Origin: Patescibacteria group bacterium
GTDB taxonomy: Bacteria; Patescibacteriota; Microgenomatia; CAYGWK01
NCBI GenBank assembly: GCA_049322615.1
Contig: JBMORX010000005.1
Coordinates: 395-64,394 of the forward strand
Length of the DNA stretch: 64,000 nucleotides
Direction of reading: 5' to 3'
Below the pieces are notes generated by a model. The model made no database searches. It saw only the letters and a program-made list of their open reading frames with translations, and was not told where the DNA came from. The position numbers were made by a program, and so were the translations under genes. Below, one piece after another: positions 49,241-63,712 of the stretch. Position 1 is the first letter of the stretch, and the number at the start of each line of letters is the position of its first letter.

Positions 49241-50218
49241 ATGTATGATCTGATCATTATCGGTTTAGGTCCGGCAGGCTTGACTTCCTCAATTTATGCT
49301 TCGCGTTTTCGGATAAAGCATTTGCTAATTGGAAGCTCGCTGGGAGGAGCAATGGCTTTGGCTTTTTCTGTGGAAAATTACCCAGGATTTGAGAAGATTT
49401 CCGGTTTGGAATTGGCTAAAAAAATGGAAAGCCAAGCCAAAAATCTAGGGGCGGAGATTTTGGTTGATGAGGTGGTTAAAATCAAGGGAGGTCCTTCTTT
49501 TACGGTAGAAACTGCTTCAGGGAGAAAATTTCAAGCCAAAAATCTAATTGTGGCGACTGGGACAAAGCGCCGGCAGTTAGGAATTCCTGGTGAGACAGAA
49601 TATCTTGGTCGAGGGGTCTCTTATTGTTCAACCTGCGATGCCCCCTTTTTTAAGGATAAGGTGGTGGCAGTCATTGGCGGGTCAAACGCGGCCGCCATGG
49701 GAGCGGTTCATCTTTCCTCTTTTGCCAAAAAGGTTTATTTGCTCTATCGGGGAAAGCCTTTGCGCGCCGAGCCTGCTTGGGTGGAGAAGGTAGAAAAGAC
49801 ACCCAGGATTACGGTGATTTACGAAACGAATATTAAAAAGATATTAGGATATAAAGATATTAAGATATTAAGCGAAGAAGAAAAAGCACCTAGTATCGAT
49901 CGAGTGGCGGCGGTGGAATTGGATAAACCATACAAGGGGAAAAGGCTTTTGCCTGTGGATGGGGTTTTTGTGGAAATTGGGGGTGTTCCTGGAGCAGAGT
50001 TAGTCAAGCCTTTGGGAGTGGAACTTAATGAGAAGGGATTTATCAAGGTAGGAGCGGATATGGCGACCAATATTGCCGGAATTTTTGCCGCTGGAGATGT
50101 GGCTAATGCCTCTGGTGAGCTTCAGCAGATAGTGACGGCTGTCTCCGAAGGAGCAATTGCCGCCGCCTCGGTTTACCAAAATCTGGGACTTGACAAAGAC
50201 ATTAAGTGTACGTTATAA
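49241..50218 (+). CDS. trxB: thioredoxin-disulfide reductase
   Basis: FAD GxGxxG, CSTCD redox centre; in-frame G-family insert 49836-49898 (KKILGYKDIKILSEEEKAPSID). Confidence 0.85.
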   Translation: MYDLIIIGLGPAGLTSSIYASRFRIKHLLIGSSLGGAMALAFSVENYPGFEKISGLELAKKMESQAKNLGAEILVDEVVKIKGGPSFTVETASGRKFQAKNLIVATGTKRRQLGIPGETEYLGRGVSYCSTCDAPFFKDKVVAVIGGSNAAAMGAVHLSSFAKKVYLLYRGKPLRAEPAWVEKVEKTPRITVIYETNIKKILGYKDIKILSEEEKAPSIDRVAAVELDKPYKGKRLLPVDGVFVEIGGVPGAELVKPLGVELNEKGFIKVGADMATNIAGIFAAGDVANASGELQQIVTAVSEGAIAAASVYQNLGLDKDIKCTL

Positions 50219-50508
50219 TGATCAACGGAGGTGAATTTATGGATATCATCGCCGCTACCCATGCTCGAAGTAAATTCCTTGAGCTGGTGGACGAAGTTGA
50301 TAAATTTTTAAAACGTTATATTATCACTAAAAAGGGTCGACCCAAGGCGGTCCTTTTATCGGCCGAAGAATTTGAGTCTTGGGAAGAAACTCTCTATACT
50401 CTTTCTCATCCTCAAACCATGAAGGCTATTCGAGAAGGGGAGAGAGACTGGAAAGCGGGGCGAAAAGAGAAATTTGTTGCTTTAGAAGAATTAAGGAAAA
50501 AAGATTAA
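50206..50508 (+). CDS. Phd/YefM-family antitoxin
   Basis: KGRPKAVLLSAEEFESWEETLY. Confidence 0.7.
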   Translation: MYVIMINGGEFMDIIAATHARSKFLELVDEVDKFLKRYIITKKGRPKAVLLSAEEFESWEETLYTLSHPQTMKAIREGERDWKAGRKEKFVALEELRKKD

Positions 50509-50514
50509 AGAATA

Positions 50515-50772
50515 ATGCCTGCTAGAGTTATTCTCCACCGCCAGGCAGAAAAGGATCTGCGGAGACTTCCTAAACTTATTTTTAAGGCAGTTTGGCGAGC
50601 CCTTGAGGATCTTGAAAAAAATCCCCTGGTTGGTTTGCCTTTGCGAGGCGAACTTGAAGGCAAAAGAAAATATCGAATAGGAGATTGGCGAATTATTTAT
50701 GAGTTTTTAGCCAAAGAAAAAATCGTTATCGTCTACAAAATCGAATCCCGCAGCCAAGTTTACAAAAGATAA
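50515..50772 (+). CDS. RelE/ParE-family toxin
   Basis: YRIGDWRIIYEF....IVIVYKIESRSQVY. Confidence 0.7.
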   Translation: MPARVILHRQAEKDLRRLPKLIFKAVWRALEDLEKNPLVGLPLRGELEGKRKYRIGDWRIIYEFLAKEKIVIVYKIESRSQVYKR

Positions 50773-51562: not shown

Positions 51563-52442
51563 TAGTGATATTTCCGGTCATGATAGGGTTTAACGCCGTC
51601 AAGGCCTGTATTAAACACGAGAAAATCTTATTAAAACGGGGTTCGTTAAATCATTGAATCCTCTTGGACAAGATAAGCCTAAAGGCTTATGTTGTCCCAA
51701 TCCTAGATTCTATTACATTCCCTTTACTCATACATTTTTTATGCCGATCGGCATTAAAAAAGTATGCCCGGAGAACCGCTTAGACATTAAGTAATAAAGA
51801 GCTCACAAGGCTTTGGGCTTATTGACAATTCATGACAGGCTGACAGGGTCCGTCCCTGTCAGGGCTTCCCTCCTGGTTTTGCAGAAACTTAGGAGCGTCG
51901 CAGGGTGGAGAACAATAAATAAAAACCAATAAAGGCAACTATTAAAGAAATAATAGCAAAGATAATCCGACCGTCCATTCTACCTCACTTCCTAATAAAC
52001 AAATAAATAGCAATTAGAATGATGCCGCTTCCCAAACTTGCAAATGAAAAAAGCGTTAACCAATCATAATTCATGATTTGACTCCTTTTACGAAAAATAA
52101 CCCTGTTCGTAAAAATCCCAGCGAGAAAAAGGCGCCCCATAAAAACGAAATTGCTGCCTCAGACCAGTTTTTAGGCCAGGACGGAAAGACACTGATTACT
52201 CCCGCGACAAACCAGGCAACGCCAATATTAGAAAGAAATTCGGCAATTAGTCTTTGTTGCCCAACAGATAATTTCTTCATCCATTTTGATGATATCATTT
52301 CCTTAGGAAGGGTGTCAACGGGCATAATCCACCGATTGAGAGGGTTTGTCCCTGTCACCCTTCGTCGACCGGTCAACGACCATATTTTTCCAGTGCCGAT
52401 CGGCACTAAAAAAGTAAGGCGAATTCTGACCCTTGACTTTGA

Positions 52443-52655
52443 GTGGGGATTGATGGTAGGATACCGAAAGTTATGGCAAGACTGCCTCAAGTTGATAAAG
52501 ACGTGTGTATTGGGTGCGGGCTTTGTGTGACGATTGCCCCGAAGACTTTTAGACTTAGGAAAGATGGTAAAGCCGAGGTAATCAATCCACCAGGGGATGA
52601 GGAAGAGAAAATTAAAGAAGCAGTCGATTCCTGCCCGGTAGGAGCAATAAAGTAG
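52443..52655 (+). CDS. 4Fe-4S ferredoxin (single-cluster)
   Basis: CIGCGLC...CP. Confidence 0.65.
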   Translation: MGIDGRIPKVMARLPQVDKDVCIGCGLCVTIAPKTFRLRKDGKAEVINPPGDEEEKIKEAVDSCPVGAIK

Positions 52656-52685
52656 AGGTTATTAGTAATTAGTTATTAGCAATTT

Positions 52686-53680: not shown

Positions 53681-53986
53681 ATGGCTCATACTATCTTCCA
53701 TCACCTTTTTATTGCTTTTAGAGCGGTTGTACGCGGTCTGGTGCTTTTAGCGGTCTGGATTGCGGTTTCCTTAACTGGAGTCTTTTTTTGGAGCCAGTTT
53801 TCCTCGCCAATAAATCTAGTTTTAGGGGCGCCACTTTTCTTAATCGGTTTGACCATGGGACTGTCCGCTCTTTATGAAGCGGTGGTTGGAGTCATCTCCT
53901 GGCGGTGGGGAAGAACCCATTGTCCGTTTTGTGAGCCACCAAAAGAAGTTAAAAAAATTCTTTCTCCTTATGATGGATTTAAATAA
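53681..53986 (+). CDS. hypothetical membrane protein
   Basis: Two TM segments. Confidence 0.3.
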   Translation: MAHTIFHHLFIAFRAVVRGLVLLAVWIAVSLTGVFFWSQFSSPINLVLGAPLFLIGLTMGLSALYEAVVGVISWRWGRTHCPFCEPPKEVKKILSPYDGFK

Positions 53987-54668
53987 AGAGTAATTAGTAA
54001 ATAGTAATTAGTAATTGGGTCCTTGACTTTTTTTATTTTTTAGCGTAAATTAACTCCACCTCTGTCCAAGCCTGCTCCAGTTTCTATCCTAATTACAAAT
54101 TACGAATTACTAATATCTAAAATATCTAAAATCTCCTGCCCAGCCCCATAGGGCCTTACCGTTCGCCTTCAGGTTCTATTCGAACACGGCTCACGGAGCG
54201 GCCTGACGGGGCAAGGGAGGTTTTTATGTTATATTGGGGCCTTTTTACTTTTGGCTACTGCCTCGGGGCGATTTTCGCCACTTTTATTTTCTCTGGACGC
54301 GCTGATTAACGCTGAAAATCAGGCTAAAAGAGGAGATAAATTACTCAAAGAAAACAACCGGTTTAGTCTTTTAACTAATAGCGTCGTCAAAAATAGGCTG
54401 ATTAACGCTGAATTTTTGAGGCTATAGTTTTGATAACCAGGCTATTCTACCAAACTATTTGTCTGATAACAAAATACTATATTTAATAAAACTTTGACAA
54501 TAATATAGACCTATAAAAAAACTTCCCCATCATTTTAGCCTCGGAAATAGTGATCTTCCGTGATTGTTGGTTTTTAGTTTTGTGCTTGACGGTCTAAAAC
54601 CCCTAAAATCATCTTAACTTATAGGGACTTGACAAGAGTACCCATGAAAGGTAACAATTAAAGGGTAA

Positions 54669-57600
54669 ATGACTGCCCAAGAAAAATTAAAAATTCTTCA
54701 AAAAGTTTTAAAAGAAGGCGCTTCGGTTTCTTCTGTCTGTCGAAAATTTAAAATTTCCCGAAAAACCTTTTATGCTTGGAAGAAAAGATATTTGGCAGTC
54801 GGACCGAGGGGAAAGATCACTTGCCTTGAAAAACGCCATTTAAGAGGCTTACAGCACCCCCGAGGCTTAAGACTTCGCTTTAAAAAAGACATTTTGAGAC
54901 TGGTAACCCTTCATCCGGAGTGGGGAAGCCATACCCTAAATAAAAAATTAAAAATAAAAAATAAAATATTGGGTAACCATGGTGTTTATTCCTTATTAAA
55001 AGAGCTGGGTCTTGAGACATATCTAAAAAGAAAAGAGTTTGCCGGCGATTATCGCAGCCCATTAAGGCTTTTGCCCGAAGCGAGAAAGCGGATGGTTGAA
55101 AGGGTGATTCTGGCTCAAGAAAAAGTAGGAGAGGTAGCTGGCGAATTCGTGGTCAGCCGGAAGACACTTTGGAAATGGGCAAAAAGATATAAAGAAGGAC
55201 AAGAAATGCAAGATCAAAATCCGACCGGCTCAAGCCATCCTCGGGGAACACCGGAGTGGCTGGAGAAGAAAATCCTGGAGGCTATCGTCAGAAATCCAGA
55301 GTATTCAACTCACAAGTTGGCGCAAATTATTCCAAAAATCGGTAATCATGGGATACAGAATGTATTATTGCGAAATGGTTTGAATACTTTTGATAGGAGA
55401 CTGGTTTATGCCCGAACCCATGCTCCTGTTTCTCTGGTTCAACCAATTACCGGTTGGCTCAACCGTCTCAAATCTGTCTGGCAAACTTTTGTTCCCACCA
55501 TTGCTCCAGCCCCCCCGCCAAAAATCTTTCAGATATTTAGGCGGGCAAGCCCTCCCTTCTTGCTTTCTTTCCTTACAAGTTCAATTCTTTCTTTTCTTTT
55601 TCTCCTCTGGCTTTCAATGATTTCTTCCTATCCCGCTTTCTTACGTCCTGGTCTTTTCTTTGCCTCGATTTCTTTATTAGTTGGTTCTTTTTTCTTCTTA
55701 TACTCAATGAAATATTACTTTACTTTGGCGCTTGTTTTGTCGTTCTCGACGCAAACAAGCGAGGTGGGGCCCGCCTCCGTTGACACTTCGGCGAGGCAAG
55801 GCTGGTTGGCGAGGATATTTGGAATCGGTAATGGTGCCTTAAGAGGTCTGACCTCTTTAAAGTCTTCGACCGAGGTCAGACCTCCCCTAGGAGGTGGTTT
55901 GCAACCAAACCTGGAGCATATTAAATTAGAAAGATATCCTTTTATCTCTGTCCACCTACCTTTTTATAATGAGAAGAAAGTGGCGGAGAGAATTTTGTCT
56001 GCCTGTACCTCTTTTGATTATCCCCATTACGAGGTGATTGTTTGCGATGATTCGACCGATGAGACAGTCGAAATCATTAACGAATGGAAAGACCATCCCC
56101 GCGTTAAGATTCTTCACCGACCGACAAGAGAAGGATTTAAAGGTGGGGCCCTTCGGGAAGCCTTAAAACACCTGGATCCGAAAACGGAGTTTGTCATCAT
56201 CTTTGATGCGGATTTTATTCCCTATCCTGATACCTTAGAAATGTTTGTCAAATACTTTAAGGCGACAGGAGGATGGAATGAGCAACAGAGCTATCAAGCT
56301 ACCAGGCTATCAAGTATGCCTTACGATACCTTTTCCAAAGTAGAGATTAGCACTTCGACAAGCTCAGTGCTAGAAAAACAGGTTGAAGAACTAAGGAAAA
56401 AGAATAACATTGCCTGTGTGGCGGGTTATCAATGGCATGTTTTAAATAAATCAGAAAACTGGATAACCAGGGGAGTGAGAACTGAATACGCGGGAAGCTA
56501 TGTGATTGAAAGACCAGGGCAAGAGATTCTTGGAGCCTTAAAGATTATCCATGGGTCTGTTTACTGTATCAGAGCCGATGTTTTGAAGCATTTTGGTTGG
56601 GGAACAAGTATTACTGAAGATTTTGAGTTAACCTTAAGAATCTACGAGAAAGGGTTTAAAGTAGTTTACACTCCCTATGTCCAGGCACCTTCAGAGTGTG
56701 TCTCGACCATTAAAAGATTAATTAGACAGAGAATGAGGTGGGCAGAGGGACACTCCTTTAATGTCCGAAAGATGTTTTTAAGACTTTTGTTTGGGAAGTG
56801 GGAGACGGTGAAGACAGAAGACAGAGGACGGACGACGGATACAGAGGACAGAGAACAGAAAACAGAGCATCAGCCTTCAGTCATCGGTTTTCAAAATCCG
56901 TCTTCCGCTTTCAGTCTTCCGTCTTCCAGGCGGTGGGTTCCTTCAAAACTCACCTTCGCCGAGAAACTGGAATTTCTCTACCTCAGCCCTTATTATCTTC
57001 AAGCTTTTTTCTTTTTAATCGGGACCTTCTCTTGGCTAATCAGTGAGACTGTTTTTCCTGCCAGACTCCCTTTCTGGACTTCTCTCTGGGGCTGGTCTTT
57101 GGTCTTAACCAACTTCTTTGCCCTACCTTTAGTCAATGCCGTGGGATTATTTTTAGAGGAGAGTGAGGAAAGAGATTACTTAGGGATTTTATCATTTGTG
57201 GCTTTGTCTTATTTGTTAGTTCCCTTCCAAGCCTATGCTGCAGTTAAAGGCTTTTTAGAGTCCCAAGAAGGCCCCTGGTTTAGAACCCCAAAAACAGGCA
57301 AGATTACCGATATTTTTACAAGAGGCAGATTCTATCGCTGGATTACCGGTATTTTACCAGGTCGGGCAAAGCCCTCCCTAGCGCCGATTGCCGCTGATAT
57401 CAGCGCTGATCAGCGCGGATTTTTCAATCAGCCATTATCAGCGTATGTCGCCTTAGCGACAGCCAATAATCACTTTAATCGCTTTCATATCAAGCCTAAG
57501 AAAATGAGATGGTTGGCAAAAACTTTTCTTGCTGTTCTCTTAATCCTAAGCCTTAATCTTTCCTGGCTGTCTTTCAAAGTTCCTTTGGCTCACGCCTCGC

Positions 57601-59396
57601 CCGGAACCCAGATTAAAACAATTGAGATGCCGATTTATCAATATGCGGCTAACGCCGATGATACGGATATCGCTGCTTCAAATGGAATCGATAATACTGC
57701 CTATACCAATAACGGTCCCCAATTTTCCTTAAACATTCCCGAGACAATGGTTGACTGTCGAACTGATTTAACTGGCACCAATCCTTGTTATGCCTATGTT
57801 GAGTGGCGAACGATTCTTAGCGTGGCAAATGTGACTTCTGGGGAAATGAAGTTTCGTATAGGTACAAGTGCTTTTAAAACTTTATCCTTAACTACCTTAA
57901 ATACCAACTCTGGCGAAAGCCAGTCTCTTATTATTCGTATGGATGTCACCAGTGAAGTGGCTCAAGGAAATAATACTTATAACTTTAATGCTAATGTGGA
58001 TGTGGCTAGAAATACCGATTCAGCCAAATTAATCGTGACTTATGAATATGATGATTCTGCCACAACCCAGGTAAAAACGGTCAGGTATGCCTTGCCGACT
58101 AAAGAAAGCCAATCAGCCGCAAACACAAATGATACATTAACTAGCACCCTAAACCCTAATCTCCAAGAAGCTAACATTTCCATCCAAAAAGCCTGGATTG
58201 AATTAACAGGTCAGGTTTCGGCGGGGACCGCGGACACGGGGACTAGAGCCATTATACAAGATAGCAATGTGTATCCAGTGGGTAGTGGTGCAACGAACTT
58301 AACGATGATGGATGGAGACAATAAAACCACTATGGATTTTGTGGCCATGTATGAACCTTCTAATGTAGTAGCTTCCGGAGCCGGTCCTATGGAATTGAAT
58401 TATAATGCAGCGAATACAATTGCTATGCGAAACGCTGGTCAGGTCATGAATCTAAAAGGTGGAGAACTTTTGATTACCTATAATTACAGCTATTACAATA
58501 CTTCCAGTACCACCCACCGCAACGCTGTCCGCTATTATGTGGGGCAGTTAGACGGAGCCCTACCCACATCTTATACTCAAATAGGGGCGCCGGTGGTTTA
58601 TCTACCGGAAAGCTCGCTGGCAAACTATAATGTTTATCTTAAGGTAGTGGGGACGAATGTTGACAATACTGGTACTAGGTATAGAGTGACCATTACTGGT
58701 GGTTCGGCAGTAGAATATCCCTCTGCCACAACTTATTATGCGGCGGCGATTTCCGAGCAGGCAGGTAGAGAAGTTATTTTTATTGATATTTCAAGCAATT
58801 TTTCCAGCAATTGGAGTAGCGGCGATACAGTGACGGTTGAGGCAATAGCAGAGGCGGCGTCTGATCATTATGCCATTGGAGCGGAACTTGTTATTTCCTA
58901 TAATTTTACTATCCCGGTGGGTAGTGGCACTTTTACCAATATTAAGACGGTTAATTGGTTTATTGGACAACAAACAGCCAAAGCAGCAGATAATTGGTCG
59001 CCCACTTTTAACACCTATATCCCCGAAACCTCAACCACTGTACGATCTTCGGGAGGGGAGGGAAATTACGTTATCTCTGATACAGGAAACTGGTACAAAG
59101 GTCTTCAGGTAGCCAGTGTTGGCAATGATTCAAGTTATACCACTACAGGCGAGAATGTTACGCTTTCAAACTTTTCTAGTACAGGCTTAACCGGTTCCTC
59201 GCAAACTAGCGTCTCTGCGATTATAAGGGTTTCCGATGGTAGTTCAGCATGGAAGGATTCCCTGAAAGGGGGTATCACTTTTACCACCTATGAGGTTTCT
59301 GCGCCCCAGGCGCCGGAAAAAGCGTTAATGCTTTTATTTGTTGCACCATTTTTACCTAAAATAGTAGAATGGTGGAGAAGGAAATATTTGCAATGA
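54669..59396 (+). CDS. multidomain membrane protein: tandem transposase-type HTH (N-term) + processive GT2 glycosyltransferase (cellulose/chitin-synthase-like) + long Thr/Ser/Asn-rich beta-type extracellular region + C-terminal sorting-signal-like tail
   Basis: HTH repeats (KFKISRKTFYAWKKRY; EFVVSRKTLWKWAKRY); GT2 motifs DDSTD, FDAD, QRMRW; 1575 codons without stop; C-terminus APEKALMLLFVAPFLPKIVEWWRRKYLQ. Confidence 0.65.
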   Translation: MTAQEKLKILQKVLKEGASVSSVCRKFKISRKTFYAWKKRYLAVGPRGKITCLEKRHLRGLQHPRGLRLRFKKDILRLVTLHPEWGSHTLNKKLKIKNKILGNHGVYSLLKELGLETYLKRKEFAGDYRSPLRLLPEARKRMVERVILAQEKVGEVAGEFVVSRKTLWKWAKRYKEGQEMQDQNPTGSSHPRGTPEWLEKKILEAIVRNPEYSTHKLAQIIPKIGNHGIQNVLLRNGLNTFDRRLVYARTHAPVSLVQPITGWLNRLKSVWQTFVPTIAPAPPPKIFQIFRRASPPFLLSFLTSSILSFLFLLWLSMISSYPAFLRPGLFFASISLLVGSFFFLYSMKYYFTLALVLSFSTQTSEVGPASVDTSARQGWLARIFGIGNGALRGLTSLKSSTEVRPPLGGGLQPNLEHIKLERYPFISVHLPFYNEKKVAERILSACTSFDYPHYEVIVCDDSTDETVEIINEWKDHPRVKILHRPTREGFKGGALREALKHLDPKTEFVIIFDADFIPYPDTLEMFVKYFKATGGWNEQQSYQATRLSSMPYDTFSKVEISTSTSSVLEKQVEELRKKNNIACVAGYQWHVLNKSENWITRGVRTEYAGSYVIERPGQEILGALKIIHGSVYCIRADVLKHFGWGTSITEDFELTLRIYEKGFKVVYTPYVQAPSECVSTIKRLIRQRMRWAEGHSFNVRKMFLRLLFGKWETVKTEDRGRTTDTEDREQKTEHQPSVIGFQNPSSAFSLPSSRRWVPSKLTFAEKLEFLYLSPYYLQAFFFLIGTFSWLISETVFPARLPFWTSLWGWSLVLTNFFALPLVNAVGLFLEESEERDYLGILSFVALSYLLVPFQAYAAVKGFLESQEGPWFRTPKTGKITDIFTRGRFYRWITGILPGRAKPSLAPIAADISADQRGFFNQPLSAYVALATANNHFNRFHIKPKKMRWLAKTFLAVLLILSLNLSWLSFKVPLAHASPGTQIKTIEMPIYQYAANADDTDIAASNGIDNTAYTNNGPQFSLNIPETMVDCRTDLTGTNPCYAYVEWRTILSVANVTSGEMKFRIGTSAFKTLSLTTLNTNSGESQSLIIRMDVTSEVAQGNNTYNFNANVDVARNTDSAKLIVTYEYDDSATTQVKTVRYALPTKESQSAANTNDTLTSTLNPNLQEANISIQKAWIELTGQVSAGTADTGTRAIIQDSNVYPVGSGATNLTMMDGDNKTTMDFVAMYEPSNVVASGAGPMELNYNAANTIAMRNAGQVMNLKGGELLITYNYSYYNTSSTTHRNAVRYYVGQLDGALPTSYTQIGAPVVYLPESSLANYNVYLKVVGTNVDNTGTRYRVTITGGSAVEYPSATTYYAAAISEQAGREVIFIDISSNFSSNWSSGDTVTVEAIAEAASDHYAIGAELVISYNFTIPVGSGTFTNIKTVNWFIGQQTAKAADNWSPTFNTYIPETSTTVRSSGGEGNYVISDTGNWYKGLQVASVGNDSSYTTTGENVTLSNFSSTGLTGSSQTSVSAIIRVSDGSSAWKDSLKGGITFTTYEVSAPQAPEKALMLLFVAPFLPKIVEWWRRKYLQ

Positions 59397-61954
59397 AAGA
59401 TTTAAGGCGACTTTTGTTTTTTCTTTTTTTTCTTTCTGGTTTCTCTGCTTTGGTTTATGAGGTAGTTTGGGCAAGAAAGCTTTCTTTAGTTTTTGGAACA
59501 ACAGTTTTTGCTGTGAGTTCGATTCTGGCGGTGTTTTTTGCGGGATTAGCGATTGGAAGCTGGGTTTTTGGTCACTTCGTGGATCATCCGAATAGAATGC
59601 GAATGAAAATAATCCGAATAAACGCGAATACGCCACTATTACTTTATGGTTTGTTAGAATTGGGGATCGGGTTGTATGCGGCGGGGACGCCGTGGATTTT
59701 TAAGCTGGTTGAGAACCTGCAGGTTTCTTTTTGGCAGAAATTTACACCCAATTTTTACGGGTTTAGCCTTTTTACCTTTTTTCTTTCCTTTCTGGGCTTG
59801 ATTATTCCGACTACTTTAATGGGTGGAACTTTACCTGTTTTATCTAAATTCTTGGTTAGAGAAGAGGAAGAGATTGGGAGTGGAGTAGGGGTTTTGTATT
59901 TTGTCAATACTTTAGGGGCGACAATGGGAGCACTTCTTGCAGGATTTTGGTTGATTGCTACCCTTGGGGTTAGTCAAACAATCTGGACAGCAACAGTAAT
60001 TAACATCCTCATTGGAATAACAGTGCTTTGGTTAACGCGAATAAATGCTGATATTAAGCTGACGCATGTTGATGTCAGCGCCGATAAGCGCCAATCAGAA
60101 TCGGTTCCAATCAGCACCAATCAGCGAATATTGTTAGCCGCTTTTGCCCTCATGGGCTTCAGTGCCCTGGCTCTGGAAGTGCTTTGGACTCGTGTCTTAA
60201 TTTTATTTTTTGGCGGTTCGGTTTATGCTTTTACGACTGTTTTAGTGACTTTTTTGCTAGGGATAGCGCTGGGGAGCGCGATGGTAAGTAAGTTATTAAG
60301 CTACTACGCTATCAAGAATCTTTTGCTGTGGTTTGGGGCTGGAGCAGTAATTCTGGGAATTTCAGTGATTGTGAGCACCCCCTTTTTTCAAGAAATGCCC
60401 TTTTGGCTTTTAGGGATTCTTAAGGAGGCTCGTGGTTCTTTTGGAACAGTCACCGTTTGGGAATTTATTCTTTCTTTTTTAATTATGTTTGTTCCCACTT
60501 TTTTGATGGGGGTACTATTTCCTCTAGGAGTAAAGATTTATACCCAGGAGTTGGCTGGTCTAGGCCAATCGGTGGGTAGACTTTATGGCGTTAACACCTT
60601 CGGAGGAATTCTCGGTTCTTTGGCAGCCGGATTTTTACTTGTTCCCCTAATTGGTGTTCAAAAAGGAATTTGGCTGGCGGCAATACTTTATTTTTTAGTG
60701 GGCGGGGCAATTTTAATAAAGGCTGGAATCAATAAAACAGTCAAATTATTGACATATTCCTTTATATTTTTAATTATTTCGATAGGGTATTTCTTGCCAT
60801 CTTGGAACAAACATTTTTTGGTTTCTGGACCTTTTGCTAATTGGCGATTTTTTGTTTGGGACAGTCGGGAACAGGCAGAAAAAAGAATGCAAGCCTCGGA
60901 GCTTCTTTATTATAAAGAGGGGTTGGAAGCGGTGGTGGCGGTGAAAAAGAGCGGGGAGCAGATTTTTTTGCGGATTAACGGTAAAACCGATGCAGCCACA
61001 GGCTTGGACATGGATACCCAGATTCTCTCGGGACAGTTGCCAATGCTTTTACACCCAAACCCCCAGGATGTTTTAGTGATTGGTTTGGGTTCAGGGATTA
61101 CTTTGGGATCGGTGGAAACCTATCTTCTTAAAATCGTTGAGGCAGTAGAAATTGAACCGGCGGTGGTCGAGGCGGCAAAGTATTTTTCCGAGGCAAACTG
61201 GAATGCCTTGGAGGATAAAAGATTAAAAATGATTGTCGGAGACGGCCGGCATTATCTTTTGGGGACTTCAAAGAAATACGATATCATTACTTCCGAGCCT
61301 TCAAATCCTTATCTTGCCGGGCCCTCCAAACTCTTTACCAAAGAGTATTTTAATCTGGTTAAAAGTCGTTTAAAGGAAGAGGGACTTGTGGCTCAGTGGA
61401 TTCAATTGTATACCTTAGATACCCAAGATCTGAAAATGGTCATTAAAACTTTTCAAAGCGTTTTTCCTTATGTGACTGTTTGGGATAACCTTTCTTCGTA
61501 TGATCTTCTACTGATAGGAAGCGAGGAACCTCAAGAACTTGACCTTTCTTTGCTGGGGAAAAAATTTAGGGAAGAAAAGATAAAAAAGGATTTAGCGAGA
61601 ATTTTTATTGAAAATCCCGAGCAGTTTTTAAGTTATTTAGCCTTAGACAGTCGGGGAGTGGAAGATTTTACCCAAGGAGCAAAGGAAAATACAGATAACC
61701 ACCCGATTTTGGAATTTTCCGCCCCCAAAACCCTTTATCAGGCAACGACAAGCAAAAACATAGAGAGCTTTAAGGATTTAAGACCCAAATTGGGTGGTAA
61801 ATACGCTGAATTTCGCCAGCATGTAGTTTTGGCAAAGATGTATTTTACTCGGGGAGAAAATGAGAAAGCGGTGGCAGAATATAAAGAAGCCCTAAGGATT
61901 GATCCGGAGAACGGTTGGGTAAAACTAACCCTTGAGGGGTTAAAAGGAAGATGA
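59369..61954 (+). CDS. fused multi-TM domain + spermidine-synthase-fold domain + TPR protein
   Basis: N-terminal approx 12 TM; C-terminal VLVIGLGSGITLG...DIITSEPSNPYLAG aminopropyltransferase fold; C-terminal TPR. Confidence 0.7.
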   Translation: MVEKEIFAMKDLRRLLFFLFFLSGFSALVYEVVWARKLSLVFGTTVFAVSSILAVFFAGLAIGSWVFGHFVDHPNRMRMKIIRINANTPLLLYGLLELGIGLYAAGTPWIFKLVENLQVSFWQKFTPNFYGFSLFTFFLSFLGLIIPTTLMGGTLPVLSKFLVREEEEIGSGVGVLYFVNTLGATMGALLAGFWLIATLGVSQTIWTATVINILIGITVLWLTRINADIKLTHVDVSADKRQSESVPISTNQRILLAAFALMGFSALALEVLWTRVLILFFGGSVYAFTTVLVTFLLGIALGSAMVSKLLSYYAIKNLLLWFGAGAVILGISVIVSTPFFQEMPFWLLGILKEARGSFGTVTVWEFILSFLIMFVPTFLMGVLFPLGVKIYTQELAGLGQSVGRLYGVNTFGGILGSLAAGFLLVPLIGVQKGIWLAAILYFLVGGAILIKAGINKTVKLLTYSFIFLIISIGYFLPSWNKHFLVSGPFANWRFFVWDSREQAEKRMQASELLYYKEGLEAVVAVKKSGEQIFLRINGKTDAATGLDMDTQILSGQLPMLLHPNPQDVLVIGLGSGITLGSVETYLLKIVEAVEIEPAVVEAAKYFSEANWNALEDKRLKMIVGDGRHYLLGTSKKYDIITSEPSNPYLAGPSKLFTKEYFNLVKSRLKEEGLVAQWIQLYTLDTQDLKMVIKTFQSVFPYVTVWDNLSSYDLLLIGSEEPQELDLSLLGKKFREEKIKKDLARIFIENPEQFLSYLALDSRGVEDFTQGAKENTDNHPILEFSAPKTLYQATTSKNIESFKDLRPKLGGKYAEFRQHVVLAKMYFTRGENEKAVAEYKEALRIDPENGWVKLTLEGLKGR

Positions 61955-62520
61955 GAGGTCCAAAAGCCACTTTTTCTACGATTTTCCTTATTTTGGTCAT
62001 CACCTTGATGATCCTGCCTTTTTTGACTACCTTTAATGAGTTTTTGACTGCCTTGATTTACAAAATTGGTTGGTATCGGGTGATACAAGATTTTCTTCTT
62101 CCTTTTGAAACACGGATGATTGTCGTGGTCGTGGAAATTTTAGGGCAGAAAGCAGTTGCGGGGATCTCCACGGTTAGTGTTTTGCGCGATGATGTCTGGC
62201 AAAAAATTGCTATTTCCTGGAACTGTATTGGTTGGCAATCGGCTTTAGTTTTATTCGTAACTCTCTTAACTGGTCTTCAAGGACCATATACTAAAGTCTC
62301 TAAGTTGGAGTGTCTGGCGATAGGGATTTTAGGGACGTTTCTGATTAATATTTTAAGAATCAGCTTGGTGGCGATTTTGATTGTTTATATCAATGCCATT
62401 CCCGCCACCGTTGCTCATGATTATTTTTCTGCCTTCATCTTAATTCTTTGGCTTTTTTTCTATTGGTGGTTCTCGTATAGTTTTGTATTAGAAGAGAAGA
62501 TAATAAGAGAAGACGGATGA
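61951..62520 (+). CDS. exosortase/archaeosortase-family-like small polytopic membrane protein
   Basis: 189 aa, about 6 TM; conserved Cys in SWNCIGWQS followed about 40 aa later by NILRI (N..R), the order of exosortase catalytic residues. Confidence 0.45.
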   Translation: MRGPKATFSTIFLILVITLMILPFLTTFNEFLTALIYKIGWYRVIQDFLLPFETRMIVVVVEILGQKAVAGISTVSVLRDDVWQKIAISWNCIGWQSALVLFVTLLTGLQGPYTKVSKLECLAIGILGTFLINILRISLVAILIVYINAIPATVAHDYFSAFILILWLFFYWWFSYSFVLEEKIIREDG

Positions 62521-62585: not shown

Positions 62586-62846
62586 TTAATTCCGAACTTT
62601 AACTCTTAGACTATTTTTTAAGCTTCTTGACAAAGTCGGCGGTTGAGATTTCCAGATCCCGAAGAATTCCTTTAAAGGTTCCCTTTTTGATTTTGTTCTG
62701 CCAGCGTGAATGGGAATGACCACTCTTCTTTTAGTTTCTGGATTTCTTAAAACTAGATGGCTGCCCTTCTGGTGATCTTTGACAAAGCCGAGTTTTTGGG
62801 CAACCTTGATGATTTCTTTATGGGTGACAACAGGCAGTTTAGTCAT
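62586..62846 (-). pseudogene. hicA: HicA-family toxin, frameshifted
   Basis: MTKLPVVTHKEIIKVAQKLGFVKDHQKGSHLVL...RRVVIPIHAGR, then canonical C-terminus IKKGTFKGILRDLEISTADFVKKLKK is in another frame (62590-62670). Confidence 0.55.
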
Positions 62847-63103
62847 GCCAGGGCAAGTCTGCCAGTTTTGGGAGAGGAAACACGGACAGTGGCAATCACT
62901 TGTTCGTCTACCTGTTCAACCGGGATTTCTTCTCCATGTTTGGCTAGGCTTTCCAGATAGGCCTCAATAGCCTCGGCAATATTTTTCTTTGCCTCATCCA
63001 AGGTCTCACCATAAGAATGACAACCTCGCAAAGTGGGACAATAAGCATGATAACCGCCGTCTTTTTCTGGCTCGAAGATAACACGAAAATTTTGAGTAAC
63101 CAT
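62843..63103 (-). CDS. hicB: HicB-family antitoxin
   Basis: YHAYCPTLRGCHSYGETLDEAKKNIAEAIEAYLE. Confidence 0.7.
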   Translation of the reverse strand: MVTQNFRVIFEPEKDGGYHAYCPTLRGCHSYGETLDEAKKNIAEAIEAYLESLAKHGEEIPVEQVDEQVIATVRVSSPKTGRLALA

Positions 63104-63301: not shown

Positions 63302-63712
63302 CTAGGAGTTGAGGATTGTCTTGAAATCCCTCATGATGAGCTCAATTGCCTCAAGACATTCAAGTCTTCCCAAAACTGGAGGAAAATCGTCACGTTTTAA
63401 AAACCCCACCGGTATCTTTGTTGCCCAAGTGCCGATTTTTATCGACAAAGCCTTATACTGATAAACAGTTTCTGTGCCTCCGACACCAAAGGTGATCTCT
63501 GTCCGACAATCAGATGTCAAGTCAATTCCCAGTATTTGGGCATAGCGTTTTGGCAAAAGTGTATAGTCCGCCCCTGTGTCTACAAGCATTTCTACTGGTT
63601 GCCAGGCTTTCCTTGCTTTTGAGTAAAGCAAAAGATGAAGATAGGGACGAAAAATTTTTCCCAGAAAGGTCTTTCCCTTATAGGTGAAAGGTTCGAAAGT
63701 TATCTGGGGCAT
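63302..63712 (-). CDS. retropepsin-like aspartic protease
   Basis: LVDTGAD active site. Confidence 0.6.
   Translation of the reverse strand: MPQITFEPFTYKGKTFLGKIFRPYLHLLLYSKARKAWQPVEMLVDTGADYTLLPKRYAQILGIDLTSDCRTEITFGVGGTETVYQYKALSIKIGTWATKIPVGFLKRDDFPPVLGRLECLEAIELIMRDFKTILNS

Follow-up and report, generated by a model that had tools for sequence, protein, structure and literature searches.

We analysed a 64 kb window of DNA from a metagenome-assembled genome (MAG) of a Patescibacteria group bacterium. Near the end of this window, three adjacent genes encode a 1575-aa fusion protein, a membrane protein with a spermidine-synthase-like domain and a 189-aa protein of the exosortase family. The fusion protein joins two helix-turn-helix (HTH) modules, a processive family 2 glycosyltransferase (GT2), an extracellular passenger and a C-terminal tail that resembles a sorting signal. 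We consider it likely that the tail and the exosortase form a dedicated enzyme/substrate cassette of a previously undescribed flavour, in which each enzyme has roughly one substrate. This reading is preferred because the tail is conserved, the enzyme retains its catalytic-type triad, the two genes are closely syntenic in related genomes, and natural fusions of enzyme and tail exist.

So far, exosortase systems have been described chiefly in Gram-negative bacteria, in archaea and in a few Firmicutes, and little is understood of how they work chemically. The Microgenomates, which belong to the Candidate Phyla Radiation (CPR), are ultra-small and uncultured, and their envelope and host-attachment biology is largely obscure. 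A literature search for exosortases, archaeosortases or PEP-CTERM in Patescibacteria, CPR or Microgenomates returned no description of such a system. Sequence databases label its parts generically, as "glycosyltransferase", "exosortase/archaeosortase family protein" or "hypothetical".

The tail of the window protein runs from APEK to RRK (aa 1548-1572) and has a tripartite design: a short motif, a putative transmembrane (TM) helix and a basic cluster near the C-terminus. By hydropathy, the basic cluster would lie in the cytoplasm and the P-E motif outside. An earlier reading of the letters of the DNA without database searches (hereafter the sequence-only reading) had described this end as polar, PEK, hydrophobic and RRK, and had named its conservation among homologues as a check. 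The motif is indeed conserved: 97 of 120 homologues carry it, and contig ends truncate most of the 23 that do not.

A consensus built from 133 non-redundant tails starts with [ILV]-x4-[ILV]-T-[VI]-P-E-[NKR] and five hydrophobic residues. It continues with x-Phi-A-P-F-[LI]-P and x-Phi-Phi-x-W, and closes with at least three K/R, usually no more than 20 aa from the end. The helix length has its mode at 16 or 19, and P-E is followed by N in 34%, K in 16% and R in 11% of the tails. A profile hidden Markov model (HMM), trained on 91 tails with the window's protein left out, recognised the window tail at aa 1543-1571 (E=1.5e-8, 31.4 bits), and this was its sole match among the open reading frames (ORFs) of the window.

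In homologues whose extracellular regions are unrelated to that of the window protein, only the last 24-26 residues align to it, at 50-58% identity. We also searched the independent loci of relatives, which comprise flanks of up to 10 kb and about 1 Mb in total. There, a regular expression for the tail picked out 32 of the 45 ORFs with a GT2 and 7 of the 519 unrelated ones, two of these seven being truncated genuine tails. Tail-HMM matches in these loci are essentially all C-termini of GT2 fusions or of fragments thereof.

The likeness to PEP-CTERM and PGF-CTERM signals, as drawn in the sequence-only reading, stood as far as the tripartite design is concerned; recognition by the curated PEP-CTERM models did not follow. 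No sorting-signal model in Pfam or NCBIfam matches the window protein, the NCBIfam CTERM models gave no match at E<=10 to four representative tails, and the precomputed domain annotation of the 120 homologues does not list PF07589. The PEP-CTERM signal (TIGR02595/PF07589) was therefore rejected, since its curated models do not match and its nearly invariant Pro-Glu-Pro signature is not kept. Judged from these comparisons, the tail is conserved and resembles a sorting signal, of a type not described before.

A second class of tails was also noticed. It consists of [IV]-P-E-[IV]-P, a helix, a basic cluster and, beyond these, about 35 conserved aa on the cytoplasmic side that end in LD(E/K/Q)LPV, and it is carried by P0127, P0132, P0140, P0144, P0158, P0166 and P0237. 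In some genomes both classes occur on one contig (P0124 and P0144). One candidate for a stand-alone tail protein without a GT2, in locus L058, was discarded because a 100-N scaffold gap splits a larger ORF there.

The 189-aa protein scored 27.8 bits against the exosortase/archaeosortase model TIGR04178 (cutoff 23) over aa 87-174, which answers the HMM check that had been proposed for it. In an alignment of 30 relatives, all 30 match TIGR04178 (best E 2.2e-11) and 14 match Pfam Exosortase_EpsH (PF09721). The alignment shows invariant W-N-C92-x-G-W-Q and H156-D-Y motifs and a near-invariant N133-x-x-R136, with R136 kept in at least 90% of the sequences. Thus, the Cys...N..R arrangement noted earlier was found as C92, N133 and R136, with H156 in addition. 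In known systems the Cys/Arg/His triad is nearly perfectly conserved and suspected to be catalytic, and together with a tripartite signal it defines such systems (Haft 2023 bioRxiv 10.1101/2023.06.07.544157; PMC1569441).

A confident AlphaFold2 (AF2) model of the protein (pLDDT 81.8) shows a membrane protein with five helices, and five long helices are also seen by hydropathy; no solved structure in our comparison resembles it. Membership in XrtG, XrtY, XrtX, CrtC and ArtC was rejected, all scores being under the curated cutoffs, and the subfamily models (CrtC, XrtX, XrtY, XrtG, XrtM, ArtC and others) gave scattered sub-threshold matches only. The XrtG-type system suggested by the sequence-only reading did not hold up: the window's enzyme scored 14.7 bits against XrtG (TIGR03110, cutoff 102.75), with weak matches in only 8 of the 30 relatives, and its GT2 scored 26.8 against the XrtG-partner GT2 model (TIGR03111, cutoff 363.95). 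By these profile comparisons, the 189-aa protein is a minimal member of the exosortase/archaeosortase family outside the named subfamilies.

An exhaustive profile search yielded 525 representatives of the enzyme at 50% identity clustering, 85 of them at E<=1e-30, and the species representatives of GTDB include 236 relatives. Most records that bear a name belong to Microgenomates lineages, for example Woese-, Gottesman-, Curtiss-, Chisholm- and Daviesbacteria.

Close linkage of enzyme and tail was observed across the GTDB loci, in which 84 exosortase genes had enough upstream sequence. An HMM-positive tail ORF ends just upstream of 48 of them, with a median gap of 3.5 nt, and the gap is at most 100 nt in 37 of these 48 pairs. 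About 10 further exosortase genes have upstream variant tails, e.g. IIVPEA, that were found by regular expression alone. Seen from the other side, an exosortase gene follows the tail ORF in 48 of 54 cases, and two of the six orphans (L009 and L079) have one intervening gene for a membrane protein ending in TPR, a layout like that of the window.

Many MAGs carry 2-4 exosortase genes. In locus L003, two GT2-tail/exosortase cassettes stand in tandem, and in L001 the exosortase gene overlaps the 3' end of the HTH-GT2-tail gene. The window holds one tail, and the loci about one per exosortase gene. With several exosortase genes per MAG and tandem cassettes that each have their own GT2, the pairing of enzyme and tail is therefore approximately 1:1.

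The strongest evidence for a link between enzyme and signal comes from natural fusions predicted in single polypeptides. P0313 and P0332 (L086:4916-8599) each combine a GT2, a passenger, an IEVPEN-helix-basic tail and an exosortase; the P0332 GT2 shares 39% identity with that of the window over 595 aa (E=2e-125), and the genes around P0332 look archaeal. Six others (P0290, P0295, P0302, P0307, P0322 and P0363) join an exosortase with a beta domain and a PGI[IV]VPE/VSE-helix-basic tail, and where members of the P0363 cluster bear a name, they come from Bathyarchaeota. Since fusions carrying both enzyme and signal occur in Bathyarchaeota, the pair spans bacteria and archaea.

Several observations weigh against a dedicated cassette. 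In the window itself, an 861-aa gene stands between the tail-bearing gene and the exosortase gene. The window tail is atypical, with Ala instead of Val/Ile before P-E and with Lys and Glu inside its helix, and the hydropathy scan did not flag a TM segment there. Among the relatives, 36 of the 84 exosortase genes are without an HMM-positive upstream tail ORF; some of these have divergent tails, are second copies or follow other genes. The enzyme, moreover, has five helices, compared with at least eight TM segments in EpsH-type exosortases (PMC1569441).

One alternative is that the tail merely anchors the C-terminus in the membrane and that the exosortase homologue, without proteolytic activity, serves a glycan synthase complex as an accessory subunit or scaffold. 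EpsH was itself originally guessed to be a flippase or a polymerase. Exosortase genes often lie in polysaccharide loci (PMC1569441), the pairing of GT2 and exosortase is also seen in systems with XrtG- and XrtP-associated GT2 models, and the substrate would remain N-terminally anchored unless signal peptidase cuts it too. We nevertheless consider this alternative unlikely: a scaffold does not readily account for invariant or nearly invariant Cys, Arg and His residues, conserved [VI]-P-E and A-P-F-[LI]-P motifs would be superfluous in a plain anchor, and the Bathyarchaeota exosortase-target fusions are without any GT2.

It could also be argued that the exosortase serves substrates encoded elsewhere, its adjacency to the GT2 reflecting only a shared envelope-biogenesis operon. 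In the classical arrangement one enzyme serves many targets, the median being eight in a genome (PMC1569441), and the DNA inspected here covers 64 kb of this genome together with the flanks around relatives. The distribution of tails speaks against such a role, as essentially every tail-HMM match in the loci falls on a GT2 fusion or a fragment; so do the multiple exosortase genes of many MAGs, the tandem cassettes with their own GT2 and the enzyme-substrate fusions. We judge it very unlikely.

A further alternative concerns the HTH region, which might be an artefact or a mobile-element remnant, i.e., a separate gene derived from an insertion sequence and joined through a lost stop codon or a misassembly. 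The modules do resemble the N-termini of IS481, IS3 and IS630 transposases, in locus L045 the HTH, the GT2 and the tail are each encoded by an ORF of their own, these ORFs overlapping, and the HTH is missing from some subclades and from the archaeal fusions. However, the in-frame fusion is found in more than 100 homologues from independent assemblies, many Microgenomates lineages and several candidate phyla, no DDE or rve catalytic domain is detected by Pfam in the 1575-aa protein, a conserved promoter lies directly 5' of the HTH start, and the overlapping ORFs of L045 look like frameshifts. A separate gene with a lost stop, the possibility that the sequence-only reading had asked to be checked, is thus extremely improbable. 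The HTH-GT2 fusion is real.

In the dedicated cassette that we prefer, the tail helix would anchor the C-terminus of the passenger in the membrane and place the P-E motif on its outer side. This motif would be recognised by the exosortase and be its site of cleavage, and by analogy with ArtA/PGF-CTERM and XrtA/PEP-CTERM such cleavage of the tail is probable. The enzyme would then probably pass the new C-terminus to an acceptor, which could be a lipid, a wall polymer or a glycan. If signal peptidase also cut the N-terminal end of the passenger free of the synthase, the gene would behave like a polyprotein of synthase and surface protein. The neighbouring polytopic proteins (YfhO-like in most relatives, MFS/spermidine synthase/TPR here) might glycosylate or otherwise modify the passenger.

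A more far-reaching version of this scheme is a self-contained polyprotein for building the cell surface, made up of a membrane-tethered, autoregulating DNA-binding domain, a glycan synthase and a passenger that signal peptidase would cut out at one end and a private exosortase at the other. The passenger would be joined to a lipid or to the system's own glycan, each of the 2-4 cassettes of a genome would carry a different passenger, and the pair would be shared with Bathyarchaeota. We regard the whole of this version as doubtful.

The three ORFs reported by the sequence-only reading were all recovered on the forward strand (Table 1). ATGA start/stop overlaps occur at both gene junctions (caATGAaag at 59393-59396 and ATGA at 61951-61954), and the three genes are therefore translationally coupled. 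The first of these overlaps contains what is most likely the start of the middle gene.

Table 1. Features of the cassette in the 64 kb window, with examples of a polytopic family from the loci of relatives
Feature	Position	Strand	Description or basis
Promoter-like site with dyad	54629-54658	+	TTGACA-agag-TACCCAtgaaaGGTAACA (54629-54656), -10 TAACAAT, spacer N17/18; dyad TACC-N7-GGTA
HTH-GT2 fusion ORF	54669-59396	+	1575 aa; two HTH modules, processive GT2, internal signal-anchor, extracellular passenger, putative sorting tail
Two tandem IS481/IS3-type HTH modules, ~aa 2-125 and 140-265	54672-55463	+	Pfam/NCBIfam matches
TM helices 1-2, aa 297-347	55557-55709	+	Hydropathy scan; would put GT2 domain in cytoplasm
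GT2 catalytic domain, aa 427-693	55947-56747	+	Pfam PF00535, PF13641, PF13632
TM helices 3-5 (aa 779-858) and FRTPKTG loop (aa 871-877)	57003-57299	+	Hydropathy; motif conservation
Internal signal-peptide-like segment: KKMRW n-region, TM aa 953-971, AHA/SP (A976/S977)	57498-57596	+	Hydropathy, motif
Extracellular passenger, aa 977-1545	57597-59303	+	Four tandem, weakly similar all-beta modules of ~125-150 aa each (predicted)
Tripartite tail: A-P-E-K (aa 1548-1551), helix ALMLLFVAPFLPKIVEWW, basic RRK	59304-59393	+	Tail HMM
Middle gene, MFS-like/spermidine-synthase-like/TPR membrane protein	59369-61954 (longest ORF, 861 aa); likely start ATG 59393	+	
Exosortase-family gene, locus tag ACOZBZ_02430	61951-62520	+	189 aa
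Predicted catalytic Cys92	62224-62226	+	Alignment
Predicted catalytic Arg136	62356-62358	+	Alignment
Predicted catalytic His156	62416-62418	+	Alignment
Polytopic-family examples	L017:10701-16651, L047:10600-16569, L051:11027-13978		

The two transposase-type HTH repeats described earlier were recognised by several models: HTH_Tnp_1, HTH_28 and HTH_23 each match two stretches of the 1575-aa protein, and HTH_32 matches aa 166-221. They correspond to the N-terminal DNA-binding part alone of IS481/IS3/IS630 transposases. Identity as an IS481/IS3 transposase was rejected, since only model positions 2-112 of 284 are covered, at 96.6 bits against a cutoff of 224. The fusion of HTH and GT2 recurs in more than 280 Patescibacteria proteins, which are 880-2630 aa long, and the BLAST coverage of most homologues ends about 62% into the query, i.e., with the HTH and GT2 part. 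The same cassette also appears under "uncultured Gammaproteobacteria" titles in L015, L023, L025, L026, L031 and other loci; these titles look taxonomically unreliable.

The promoter-like site upstream of the fusion gene is the best such match within 53900-54800, and its TACC-N7-GGTA dyad overlaps the spacer and the -10 box. The composite motif of promoter and dyad occurs once in the window, and 13 of its 17 matches in the relatives' loci lie no more than 150 nt from HTH-GT2 starts. The dyad is enriched upstream of HTH-GT2 genes at N7 spacing only, and in its exact form it covers just about 20% of these genes in the loci. It is possibly an operator for the protein's own two HTH modules, which would then bind the promoter of their own gene and autoregulate it.

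The GT2 part agrees with the processive enzyme with DDSTD, DAD and QRMRW amid TM helices that had been read from the letters alone. Its motifs (DDSTD at aa 460, DAD at 513, TED at 649, QRMRW at 687 and FRTPKTG at 871) are kept in 116-120 of 120 homologues, and [FWV]R[TV]xK[TS]G is found in all 120. The catalytic motifs lie in a predicted cytoplasmic domain between TM segments, as in processive membrane GT2s. Among enzymes with a known structure or function, the window GT2 comes nearest to chondroitin synthase and BcsA (PDB sequence matches) and to PgaC. From its motifs and hydropathy, the big gene encodes a membrane-embedded GT2 of the cellulose/poly-N-acetylglucosamine-synthase class.

The BcsA, PgaC/IcaA, hyaluronan, chitin and NodC-type synthases share with the window GT2 the D, DxD, TED and QxxRW motifs, the flanking TM helices and an FxxTxK-like loop; the FRTPKTG loop resembles the BcsA gating loop. 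The window GT2 nevertheless falls far under every equivalog cutoff of this class, and synthases of defined product were rejected (PgaC 88.6 vs 422.3, CelA 62.5 vs 699.1, NodC 28.9 vs 550). It also differs from processive synthases in its N-terminal double HTH and in its C-terminus, where a signal-anchor, a passenger and a sorting tail stand in place of PilZ or other regulatory ends. Just past QRMRW, at 56780-56950 (~aa 705-760), there is a charged low-complexity insertion (TEDRGRTTDTEDREQKTEHQ...), which is missing from the archaeal homologue P0332 in a pairwise alignment.

Downstream of the synthase, the motif [VLIA]xA[TSAQDEN] follows the signal-anchor helix at a fixed offset in 71 of 112 homologues. 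Control segments show it in 9 of 112, and shuffled sequences in 17 +/- 3.7. This enrichment of a signal-peptidase-like motif suggests a cut by signal peptidase, which would release the passenger from the synthase.

The passenger is about 570 aa long. Its composition (T 12.9%, S 10.8%, A 9.0%, N 8.6%) and an all-beta AF2 prediction of low confidence (mean pLDDT 48) bear out the beta-rich, Thr/Ser/Asn-rich extracellular region that had been proposed. No family in Pfam or PHROGs matches it, and the adhesin named in the sequence-only reading is therefore a putative label. Among the GT2 homologues, the passenger can be aligned to P0122, P0181 and P0145 only. The extracellular parts of the homologues are diverse and carry Pfam domains that the window protein lacks, such as DUF2341 and Beta_helix.

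A homologue search with the passenger returned just seven weak stand-alone proteins of about 630 aa (P0241-P0247). They begin with MATRxKTVEF, have neither signal peptide nor tail and match nothing in PHROGs; they share with the passenger module (57591-59303) invariant K-T-x-E, P-E and T-Y-x-Y-D positions.

The middle gene had been read as a fused multi-TM/spermidine-synthase-fold/TPR protein. It scores 158.8 bits against the model of fused MFS/spermidine synthases (NF037959; cutoff 40) and belongs to this family, with TPR repeats in addition. Its domains include Spermine_synth at aa 556-703 and TPR at aa 819-852. Canonical spermidine synthases have signature Asp residues in the GGGDG loop and in a D-S-T-D-P motif. 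Aligned to T. maritima SpeE (1inl), the middle protein has GLGSG in place of GGGDG and EPSNP in place of DSTDP, and a match to canonical SpeE (TIGR00417) was rejected at 86.9 against 249.55. Because these signatures are degenerate, the SpeE-like domain is probably not an aminopropyltransferase.

A homologue of the middle gene lies directly 5' of the exosortase gene only in L084 and L085, which belong to the window's subclade (exosortase identity to the window 87% and 75%, respectively), and in L057. In L010 it is 5 kb away on the opposite strand. We rejected it as a core third component of the system because, apart from the close relatives of the window, just 2 of about 77 GTDB loci have it near the exosortase gene; it is a clade-specific insert. 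In L084, the closest relative, the stretch between the GT2 orthologue and the homologue of the middle gene (L084:1938-5484) holds a PDDEXK_3 gene and a gene for a 1034-aa PQQ beta-propeller protein, which has a signal peptide and no tail.

In 33 other loci, the exosortase gene is immediately followed, on its own strand, by genes of an unannotated polytopic family (440-980 aa), often in 2-3 copies. Profile-profile comparison (hhalign) shows this family to be YfhO-like (99.3% probability, E=3e-20); the window has no YfhO-like gene. In L009 and L070, PMT_2/TMEM260-like proteins with TPR and YfhO proteins fill the slot 5' of the exosortase gene, which in the window holds a different protein. The recurring third component is thus a polytopic, often TPR-bearing membrane protein, and where it can be assigned by sequence, it belongs to families annotated as glycosyltransferases (PMT_2/TMEM260-like, YfhO).

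One 384-aa protein, P0267, fuses an exosortase domain of this family to a class-I S-adenosylmethionine methyltransferase domain. This recalls the spermidine-synthase fold encoded next to the exosortase gene of the window and may hint at a chemical modification linked to sorting.

The system resembles PEP-CTERM and XrtG systems in its presumed working and falls outside both by their curated models. With the XrtA/EpsH PEP-CTERM systems of Gram-negative bacteria it shares a polytopic enzyme of the same family, the triad, a signal of P-E, TM helix and basic residues, Ser/Thr/Asn-rich targets and linkage to glycan genes (PMC1569441; Haft 2023 bioRxiv 10.1101/2023.06.07.544157). Here, however, the signal is [VI]-P-E-[NKR] with A-P-F-[LI]-P in the helix and is missed by PEP-CTERM models, and the enzyme has 189 aa and five helices, not at least eight TM segments. 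The order is about 1:1 with several cassettes per genome, whereas PEP-CTERM is many-to-one (PMC1569441). The host belongs to the Patescibacteria, and the target itself is fused to a polytopic GT2.

The XrtG/Firmicu-CTERM system of Firmicutes likewise has a small exosortase (model length 187) near GT2s and a CTERM target, and its hosts also lack an outer membrane (PMC12854382). There, the CTERM target, XrtG and two glycosyltransferases are separate proteins (PMC12854382), while here target and GT2 are one polypeptide with an added HTH, and no curated CTERM model matches the tail. ArtA/PGF-CTERM, which acts on the Haloferax S-layer glycoprotein, is of the same enzyme family, and the window enzyme has archaeal (Bathyarchaeota) relatives. 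ArtA couples removal of the C-terminal helix to membrane-lipid attachment of a heavily glycosylated surface protein (Haft 2023 bioRxiv 10.1101/2023.06.07.544157). It differs in its PGF signal, compared with P-E-[NK] here, and in its many targets. The ArtC, ArtE and ArtF models gave weak sub-threshold matches only.

In Streptococcus mutans, the Pgf system, with YfhO-type GT-C enzymes, acts on sortase-anchored adhesins. The relatives' cassettes recall it in combining a GT2, YfhO-like proteins, a Thr/Ser-rich surface protein and a sorting transpeptidase-like enzyme, and the PgfM2 HMM gave a weak match. They differ in having an exosortase instead of sortase A and a GT2 that is synthase-like, not CsbB/GtrB-like; the window, in addition, is without YfhO-like genes.

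Taken together, the distinct traits are the signal flavour, the minimal enzyme, the 1:1 multi-cassette order, the host lineage and the fusion of the target to an HTH-bearing processive GT2. They define in Microgenomates an unnamed exosortase subfamily and its putative cognate signal. The near 1:1 pairing and the natural fusions make this an unusually clean system for studying how exosortases recognise and process their signals. The presence of a DNA-binding domain, a processive glycan synthase and a putatively sorted surface protein in one gene suggests coupled display of polysaccharide and surface protein. Additionally, HMM-ready definitions of the tail and of the exosortase clade should improve the annotation of hundreds of genes now called "hypothetical" or, generically, "glycosyltransferase".

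A few other features of the window were noted. A stretch of about 1.1 kb (51563-52685) is without a convincing ORF: it holds only two overlapping antisense ORFs, at 52071-52490 (-) and 52078-52530 (+), and has no Rfam match, the Rfam scan of the window having found two distant tRNAs and nothing else. A small ORF at 63302-63712 (-) matches retroviral-type aspartyl protease domains (gag-asp_proteas, Asp_protease_2) and adjoins a weak, sub-threshold DUF5678 match. A Phd/ParE pair is located at 50206-50772. A HicA/HicB toxin-antitoxin pair at 62586-63103 (- strand) is convergent to the exosortase gene, and the same arrangement was observed in the distantly related locus L001 (10545-11032).

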